DNA of 64,000 nucleotides, from positions 3,680,001 through 3,744,000 of the forward strand of contig OY762926.1 in NCBI GenBank assembly GCA_963666735.1, in the 5' to 3' direction. Under the pieces are notes generated by a model, which was not told the origin of the DNA, made no database searches, and was given only the letters and a program-made list of their open reading frames with translations. How positions within the stretch are numbered: position 1 is the first letter of the stretch; the number at the start of each line of letters is the position of its first letter. A program made the position numbers and the translations under genes. Positions 36,825 through 37,276 of the stretch are shown piece by piece. This DNA is from Gemmatimonadota bacterium. Its GTDB lineage: Bacteria > Gemmatimonadota > Gemmatimonadetes > Palauibacterales > Palauibacteraceae.

Positions 36825-36854
36825 TTGACGCCGGCGGAAGCCGCCGGCTAAATT
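36825..36854 (+). promoter_or_regulatory. upstream sigma70-like promoter (P1)
   Basis: TTGACG-18 bp-TAAATT; the spacer is a perfect GC hairpin. Confidence 0.45.
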
Positions 36855-36939
36855 CCGATTTTCCTCCGCGAATCGCTGCGGGAAACGGACATCCCATCAA
36901 CGAATCTTTCAAAAAAATACAACGGACGGCCGTTCGAGG

Positions 36940-36968
36940 TTGACGTCCCAAAAAAATCTTTTTAGAAT
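36940..36968 (+). promoter_or_regulatory. near-consensus sigma70 promoter (P2)
   Basis: TTGACG-17 bp-TAGAAT with upstream A-tract. Confidence 0.8.
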
Positions 36969-36973
36969 CAGAG

Positions 36974-37275
36974 CGTGCCAAGGGAGGCGGCACCGACCGA
37001 CCGGAGGTCGAGGCCGATGACCGCACCGCGAGTTGTCCGACGCGAGATCGCAAGACCGGGACGCGAGTCCCGGGCCGGAGGGAGCGGAGTTCCGGCAACG
37101 GAATGAGGCGACCAAGGGAAGAGGGATCAAGCACAGCTGGTCGGACAGACGGTACCAAGCTCGGCGGGGATTCTGGAAGACCGCGCAAGCTACCAGGATC
37201 GAGCGGAAGTTGGCTGTAAACAAGCTTCCTCGCTCAGCCCCTGACACCTTCGGGTGGCCAGGGGCTGAGTGCATC
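36974..37275 (+). ncRNA. unassigned structured non-coding RNA candidate
   Basis: Lies between promoter and terminator; GNRA-capped stems; long-range helix TGTCCGAC/GTCGGACA; purine-rich GGA loops. Confidence 0.6.
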
Positions 37276-37276
37276 T
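37232..37276 (+). terminator. terminator-like hairpin with cUUCGg loop
   Basis: GCTCAGCCCCTG-ACACCTTCGGGTGGC-CAGGGGCTGAGT; weak U tail. Confidence 0.65.

Follow-up and report, generated by a model that had tools for sequence, protein, structure and literature searches.

A stand-alone RNA gene with palindromic, putatively self-pairing sites beside an array of DnaA-box-like sequences in a Gemmatimonadota chromosome

Natural RNA homo-oligomers are rare, and the large ones described so far are without established function. OLE, ROOL and GOLLD, bacterial noncoding RNAs (ncRNAs) of ~550-830 nt (PMC12990946) whose oligomers have been seen, have symmetric kissing sites that switch palindromes, and in OLE L9.3 and GOLLD L21a this switching was taken as evidence for the cross-chain pairs seen by cryo-electron microscopy (Kretsch et al., 10.1101/2024.12.08.627333). 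ARRPOF RNA (255 nt, from a Fusobacterium plasmid) has pseudoknots and a replication-associated context, and forms a homodimer through complementary bulge and loop contacts (PMC12990946). In Escherichia coli, the glyVXY tRNA operon encodes stable RNA, is strongly transcribed and has an attenuator-like end; it lies directly 5' of datA, a non-origin cluster of DnaA boxes, and read-through from the operon controls IHF binding at datA (PMC10950094). We have analyzed a structured RNA gene in a 64,000-nt stretch of a Gemmatimonadota chromosome (assembly GCA_963666735.1, contig OY762926.1, positions 3,680,001 to 3,744,000; hereafter the window), and we somewhat favor the reading that it specifies a self-assembling ncRNA tied to an array of DnaA-box-like sequences on its 3' side, an estimate that does not extend to any datA-like role of the two.

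The RNA belongs to none of the OLE, GOLLD, ROOL or ARRPOF families, and it behaves like members of that group. It differs from OLE, ROOL and GOLLD in its length (250-309 nt among 90 distinct homologues), in having no Rfam or sequence match, in being the product of a lineage-restricted chromosomal gene with a DnaA-box array, and in that its oligomer is predicted from sequence. ARRPOF is similar in size, and its bulge and loop contacts can be likened to those predicted below; in contrast to that plasmid-borne RNA, the one described here is chromosomal, is located ~1 Mb from dnaA, has another order of helices, and matched no plasmid. The glyVXY-datA arrangement is likewise one of a stable-RNA gene directly 5' of a DnaA-box cluster, with the differences that its upstream member is a tRNA operon rather than a novel structured RNA and that the array here has an 11-12-bp period and consists of DnaA-box-like sequences. 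Unlike OLE, ROOL and GOLLD, the RNA offers a concrete functional clue, namely an array that has been co-duplicated and mostly co-lost with it, and the family is small enough for direct transcription and imaging.

Fold of the RNA and its palindromic cores

Comparison of homologues shows that the gene stands alone in the chromosome and represents a new ncRNA family, with its own conserved promoter and a multi-helix fold that includes a pseudoknot. The 90 homologues comprised 78 first copies and 12 second copies, a set that does not take in every match in the family. The RNA folded with a z-score of -2.95, and none of 100 shuffles was as stable. In an alignment of 20 sequences from the genus, 96.6% of cells could pair and both-sided changes occurred at 27 of 71 pairs; for 27 sequences from the family, the corresponding values were 97.9% and 25 of 44. 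The covariation values were matched by none of 500 shuffles, a control that ignores the relatedness of the sequences, and registers slid from the predicted one paired at 31-46%. An all-pairs covariation scan of the genus alignment was too noisy for use.

From 5' to 3', the fold runs from P1 and P2 through a short P3, which was seen by eye and left out of the pair counts, and the long P4-P5 arm, whose tip is variable, to P7 and the terminal hairpin P9 (Table 1). The original prediction, which a model had made from the letters of the window, placed P1, the long-range helix (P5, covarying) and the 2 hairpins enclosed by it where we find them. It had drawn P2 around a GGA triloop, whereas the actual register is CGACC-(7-nt loop)-GGTCG, in which alignment columns 22-26 and 37-41 pair in 100% of cells. 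A proposed helix between GGAAGTTG and CAAGCTTCC was not conserved, and its CUUCCU half pairs instead with the 5' loop; the P7 helix was upheld, but not the GCAA tetraloop assigned to it. When the best register was taken for each sequence, the purine loop of P1 and the pyrimidine tract before P9 formed at least 5 bp in 89 of 90 homologues and at least 6 bp in 85, with matched variants such as GAAGGA/UCCUUC, GGAAGA/UCUUCC and AGGAGAA/UUCUCUU. This pseudoknot may form within one chain or between chains.

Two unpaired sites in this fold were palindromic in all 90 homologues. The core of the P2 loop read CCGG in 72, and CGCG, UCGA or CAUG in 6 each; the core of bulge B1, whose register was read from alignment columns without a palindrome-guided choice, read AGCU in 70, CGCG in 17, CUAG in 2 and CAUG in 1. 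Parsimony, on a tree built with the palindrome columns masked, required 6 changes in the P2 core and 4 in the B1 core, and all were symmetric double substitutions, with no state a single change away. By comparison, 80 of 94 states in other conserved 4-column windows were one change away from another state, and by arithmetic a random double change preserves a palindrome 1 time in 9. The adjacent-base palindrome pairs were paired in 100% of the 27-sequence family alignment, and the two sites show the palindrome-keeping covariation of adjacent bases in unpaired loops that is known from OLE- and GOLLD-like RNAs. Since the P2 and B1 cores were never of the same sequence within one RNA, they do not pair with each other. 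Bases next to each other in a palindrome are unable to pair in the same chain, so homo-oligomer formation, as in OLE and GOLLD, is the most likely outcome. A protein site, we infer, would not tolerate switches among unrelated palindromes.

We consider it very probable, on this comparative evidence, that at least 2 single-stranded palindromes (the P2 loop and B1, possibly also B2 and the GCGC loop of P7) pair with the same site on a second copy to give a symmetric homo-oligomer. At its smallest the product would be a dimer; contacts with different axes would give a ring or cage. The evolutionary evidence for 2 independent symmetric contacts is unusually clean, and the natural swap variants are ready orthogonal controls. 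Bulge B2 read GGUACC in 71 of the 90, GGAUCC in 2 and GGUGCC in 2; it was a GG..CC sequence of 6-7 nt in 9 and a GNRA-type hairpin in 6, and it may itself be a mini-hairpin. The exchange of the GGUACC bulge for a small GNRA-type hairpin was seen in genus g10 (L101, L106, L110-L112 and L155), where one intermolecular contact may have been lost. The GCGC loop is a possible fourth symmetric contact; it is invariant, and hence carries no covariation information.

The raiA motif, Ms1 and 6S are also stand-alone structured bacterial RNAs, of 180-300 nt, and Ms1 binds the RNA polymerase core. That the RNA is a monomer which binds RNA polymerase or another abundant protein in the manner of Ms1 or 6S, with its palindromes incidental, would accord with the strong promoter, the ~300-nt size and the single copy, and with the Rfam 6S model (RF00013) having matched neither the source genome nor any of 31 family genomes. 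Such an account leaves the 10 symmetric double changes unexplained and is improbable. Further, when ten 6S genes from related families were combined into a profile, it detected a divergent 6S-like RNA, a rod with a central bubble, elsewhere in the source genome (G000 C1:~1,834,350-1,834,510, minus strand; E=2e-7). We therefore rejected 6S, or a stand-in for it, as the identity of the RNA, whose fold is branched and pseudoknotted rather than a long rod with a central bubble. The raiA motif is monomeric, in contrast to the oligomer predicted here. In related families 6S occupies a different locus from that of the 6S-like gene in the source genome.

The downstream array and the flanking genes

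A DnaA box with at most 1 mismatch to the consensus was present within 480 nt 3' of the RNA in all 88 loci with enough sequence, as compared with 336 boxes in 3.98 Mb; one second-copy locus and one metagenomic locus had too little downstream DNA to be counted. The RNA is followed in these loci by a T/A tract and an array of about three such boxes 11-12 bp apart, often with one more box beyond; datA and DARS are likewise clusters of DnaA boxes away from oriC. A stricter pattern of the tract plus 2 boxes matched at 62 of 77 first copies and at 11/11 second copies, which lie away from dtd and the helicase gene. Searched genome-wide, the array pattern was found in 10 of 50 family genomes and in 0 of 150 other genomes of the class, and stood beside the RNA in every match listed. 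A looser pattern was present in 5/5 RNA-bearing and 0/5 RNA-less genomes, and in G073 it was found at both copies of the RNA and nowhere else. The boxes are of mixed orientation in the source clade and direct repeats in most relatives. We put at about even the chance that the RNA, the A/T tract and the DnaA-box array are one selected unit. The original prediction had named 2 neighbors, the helicase gene and the DnaA boxes, and had called a link to either speculative; the DnaA boxes are the neighbor that holds up.

The RNA could also be a self-assembling orphan ncRNA that has no functional connection with DnaA, and the array a neighboring element. The array would then be a DnaA-regulated promoter of downstream genes, or a set of sites at which transcription of the RNA itself is regulated or ended. 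This is a possibility that we take seriously while doubting it. It accords with the -35-like hexamer found after the array in several loci, with a spacer that ranges from 36 to 319 nt, and with a degenerate tract/box remnant before dtd in two reduced genomes without the RNA, L079 and L081; it does not account for the retention of the array beside second copies, or for its absence from 5/5 other RNA-less genomes. The reduced genomes (G023 and G021, respectively) are AT-richer, and their helicase match spans one TGA.

The array is not at the chromosomal origin, which we considered and rejected: the RNA is located at 3.717 Mb, whereas dnaA is at 2.695 Mb and a parS-like site at 2.702 Mb. GC skew had its maximum at 0.70 Mb, opposite dnaA, and a noisy minimum at 2.40 Mb. 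In six single-contig genomes the first copy of the RNA was 0.9-1.1 Mb from dnaA. Because of the analogy to glyVXY read-through into datA, our committed guess, a tentative one, is that the RNA and array could be a datA/DARS-like site for DnaA control away from oriC. The RNA gene, strongly transcribed and leakily terminated, would thereby adjust how far DnaA or a nucleoid protein occupies the array, and the oligomeric RNA would be a multivalent protein scaffold; genes of the HU/IHF family are present in the genome. In its fullest form the proposal is of a new replication-control module, in which a self-assembling RNA (dimer to cage, with 2-4 palindromic contacts), made beside an off-origin DnaA-box array, would set the timing of initiation through read-through and multivalent binding of DnaA or a nucleoid protein. 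We regard this full form as unlikely. A real link between RNA and array would provide an assembly made of RNA alone with a first function open to test, and would add a layer to replication control; a DnaA link that proved functional would be categorically new.

Several observations weigh against a self-assembling RNA tied to the array, in addition to the limit of the shuffle control given above. The register of the P2 loop was picked by its palindrome, and 33% of shuffled loop regions contain one; single-sequence folding left the palindromes partly paired in some members; and B2 was non-palindromic in 9 of the 90 homologues and replaced in 6. The stricter array pattern missed 15 of 77 first-copy loci. 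The remnant in L079 and L081 indicates that loss of the RNA need not remove the array, which may act for the dtd promoter. Part of the stretch was present in 24 sequencing runs, of which 13, from four studies, were recorded as RNA; these share 0.15-0.46 of 39 sampled words, where a share below 0.2 was not counted as evidence. Their matches were rated weak, and they may contain the locus as DNA. Finally, about a fifth of the family does without the RNA.

In view of the genes to either side, the RNA might also be a cis-acting leader, or a riboswitch, for the dtd operon, or else a partner of the upstream SF1 helicase. Each gene flanks 71 of the 78 first-copy loci, some of the misses being short loci; the helicase is nearly family-specific (107/113 family genomes vs 1/31 of the sister family); and the terminator appears leaky. 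Against these readings, neither gene flanks any of the 12 second copies, ~400 nt and the array lie between the RNA and dtd, genus g11 carries the RNA in 3/3 genomes and the helicase in 0/3, and in L080, L082, L083 and L084 the helicase gene abuts dtd with the RNA absent. The helicase also occurs without the RNA in g4 (5/5), g6 (3/3), g9 (4/4) and five genomes of the source genus, so that the helicase link is weak, and we consider both readings quite improbable.

Table 1. Features of the RNA locus and its surroundings (window coordinates)
Feature	Coordinates	Strand	Basis
Structured ncRNA gene	36975..37275	+	Ends inferred from promoter and limits of conservation; covariation
Sigma-70-type promoter TTGACG-17-TAGAAT, A/T-rich spacer	36940..36968	+	Pattern search; conserved in alignments
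T-tract/A-tract, ~25 nt 5' of -35 box	36907..36917	+	Kept in 88/89 homologous loci
Second promoter-like site, not conserved	36825..36854	+	Pattern matched in 1/89 loci
P1 hairpin, with the purine loop (GGGAGG, 36982-87) that gives the long-range pseudoknot its 5' strand	36975..36993	+	Covariation
P2 hairpin; loop core (37001-04) palindromic, predicted intermolecular kissing site 1	36994..37010	+	90/90 homologues
Central arm: P4 (37026-32/37160-67), P5 (37035-40/37141-46), variable distal part (37041-133)	37026..37167	+	Covariation
GNRA hairpins in distal central arm	37056-73 and 37090-103	+	Covariation
One-sided bulge B1, palindromic core; predicted intermolecular site 2	37134..37139	+	90/90 homologues
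Bulge B2, GGUACC-type; self-pairing or mini-hairpin, ambiguous	37151..37156	+	Homologue comparison
P7 hairpin (37169-76/37193-200); loop with invariant GCGC (37183-86)	37169..37200	+	Homologue comparison
Pyrimidine tract, 3' strand of pseudoknot with P1 loop	37225..37230	+	At least 5 bp in 89/90, compensatory variants
P9 (terminal hairpin); strong sequence conservation; U-tract lacking in the window	37233..37269	+	Covariation; absent from terminator listing
T/A tract (37502-16), then 3-4 DnaA-box-like 9-mers, 11-12-bp period	37502..37562	+	Sequence comparison; match to box consensus
Distal DnaA-box-like 9-mer, often 65-120 bp past array in homologous loci	37650..37658	+	Sequence comparison
SF1 (Upf1/IGHMBP2-like) helicase, upstream neighbor, syntenic but not obligatory	34565..36691	+	Family comparison
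dtd (D-aminoacyl-tRNA deacylase), downstream neighbor, absent beside second copies	37691..38125	+	Family comparison

Promoter, 3' end and other candidate identities

The original prediction was of a novel, independently promoted, structured RNA of ~300 nt outside Rfam, and in this it was borne out; the canonical intrinsic terminator and the short open reading frame (ORF) that accompanied it were not. Its main promoter was located as predicted, with conservation visible in the alignments, and a -35-like hexamer was at the expected place in 75 of 89 homologous loci. A pattern search at the locus gave 2 promoter-like sites as against 0.1 expected. The second of these, the upstream half of a proposed tandem pair, exists in the window but is not a family trait among the 89 loci with enough sequence. 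The T-tract/A-tract 5' of the -35 box may be an UP-like element or a nucleoid-protein site. At the other end, the hairpin of the predicted terminator is real (P9) but lacks its U-tract, and because a U-rich tail follows P9 in only 15 of 90 homologues, most members probably rely on leaky or factor-dependent termination. In L154 (G082) the 3' strand of P9 is interrupted, either by an insertion or by an assembly break.

As the original prediction had held, the RNA is not tmRNA, RNase P RNA, the signal recognition particle (SRP) RNA or 6S, since tmRNA, RNase P, SRP RNA and a 6S-like gene were each found elsewhere in the genome. Its suggestion of a sponge for a CsrA/RsmA-type protein has largely been refuted, and we give it almost no weight. 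There are indeed 14 GGA triplets in the RNA, but 11.4 are expected from 1000 dinucleotide shuffles (p=0.19); CCAAGGGA does occur twice here, but in only 1 of 90 sequences is it found twice; and conserved, repeated ANGGA loop motifs were not found, CANGGANG being present in 10 of the 90 homologues. In addition, the main GGA loop is paired in the covarying pseudoknot, and csrA was absent from the source genome and present in 2 of 114 family genomes, as compared with 89 of 114 for the RNA.

A gene for a small protein, or a Shine-Dalgarno decoy for ribosomes, is very improbable. The 29-codon ORF at 37017-37106 is present in the window, and the 5' loop contains GGAGG. However, an ATG at RNA position 35-60 was found in 27 of 90 homologues, and outside the closest relatives it stood at different places with ORFs of 5-70 codons; start, stop and frame are thus not conserved. 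The loop varies as well (GAAGGA, GGAAGA, GGAGA, AGGAGAA), together with its 3' partner, which argues against a decoy.

Distribution and additional observations

The RNA was not within any Rfam 15 family, with no match overlapping it up to E=10 and none near a gathering score. Searches of 8 diverse homologous loci against Rfam gave a single overlapping match, on the opposite strand and of 22.8 bits against a gathering score of 42. OLE, ROOL, GOLLD, ARRPOF, raiA and Ms1 are included in Rfam. Our literature search found no description of the RNA: it is not named in the accessible text of preprint 10.64898/2026.10.21.760802, whose supplements and database, outside that text, may hold it as an unnamed cluster, and the accessible part of PMC10469786 makes no mention of an ncRNA.

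A covariance model of the 3' half detected the RNA in 88 of 113 other family genomes and in 0 of 31 genomes of the sister family; with the source genome included, 89 of 114 family genomes carry it. The family is one of marine bacteria, and its lineage is probably Palauibacterales (KS3-K002), to judge by PMC10469786. BLAST matched 32 of 36 genus genomes, in one of which the match lay entirely 3' of the RNA, and 70 of 114 family genomes, some of these matches being spurious. Outside the family we searched with the 3'-half model only (R1; 147 positions, 17 pairs). Among 151 genomes of the phylum, strong scores were confined to family members; 8 non-family matches had E values of 0.007-0.04 and at most 23.4 bits, and the 7 that were rescored stayed at or below 23.4 bits as against 58-143 bits for members. 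The eighth, in the unpublished genome G166, was set aside, and G166, G158, G161 and G242 contribute to tallies only. The regions upstream of dtd in 13 genomes of other families and 7 RNA-less family genomes held no homologue, and plasmids and phages gave no match. In wider collections, a sequence pattern gave 12 genome matches (9 in Gemmatimonadota records, 3 non-homologous), 0 viral and 5 metagenomic (1 true, L176); this pattern was too narrow, missing most known members, and is no sensitive test of absence elsewhere.

Second copies had kept a promoter of their own, and in six genomes they shared 67-71% identity with the first copy. In genus g8 (L142-L153) a second, diverged copy has both its own promoter and its own array, and at L152 it has an M1-aminopeptidase-like gene on one side and an unassigned ORF on the other.

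Positions 37334-37360, 3' of the RNA, hold repeated GGAGGGAUG-like units, and a run similar to these units is found at G000 C1:~582,070, between genes at the place that 6S occupies in related families. The array pattern also matched six identical 42-nt sequences, at 0.613, 1.107, 1.599, 2.709, 3.505 and 3.889 Mb of G000 C1, which probably represent one end of an insertion element present in multiple copies. Upstream, in the segment 33145-36691, a 495-aa ORF without a Pfam or NCBIfam match precedes the SF1 helicase gene and is weakly matched beside the helicase in three other loci. Farther 5' of the helicase (29502-32349) are defence-like genes, including an AbiEi/AbiEii-type pair and a DruA domain.
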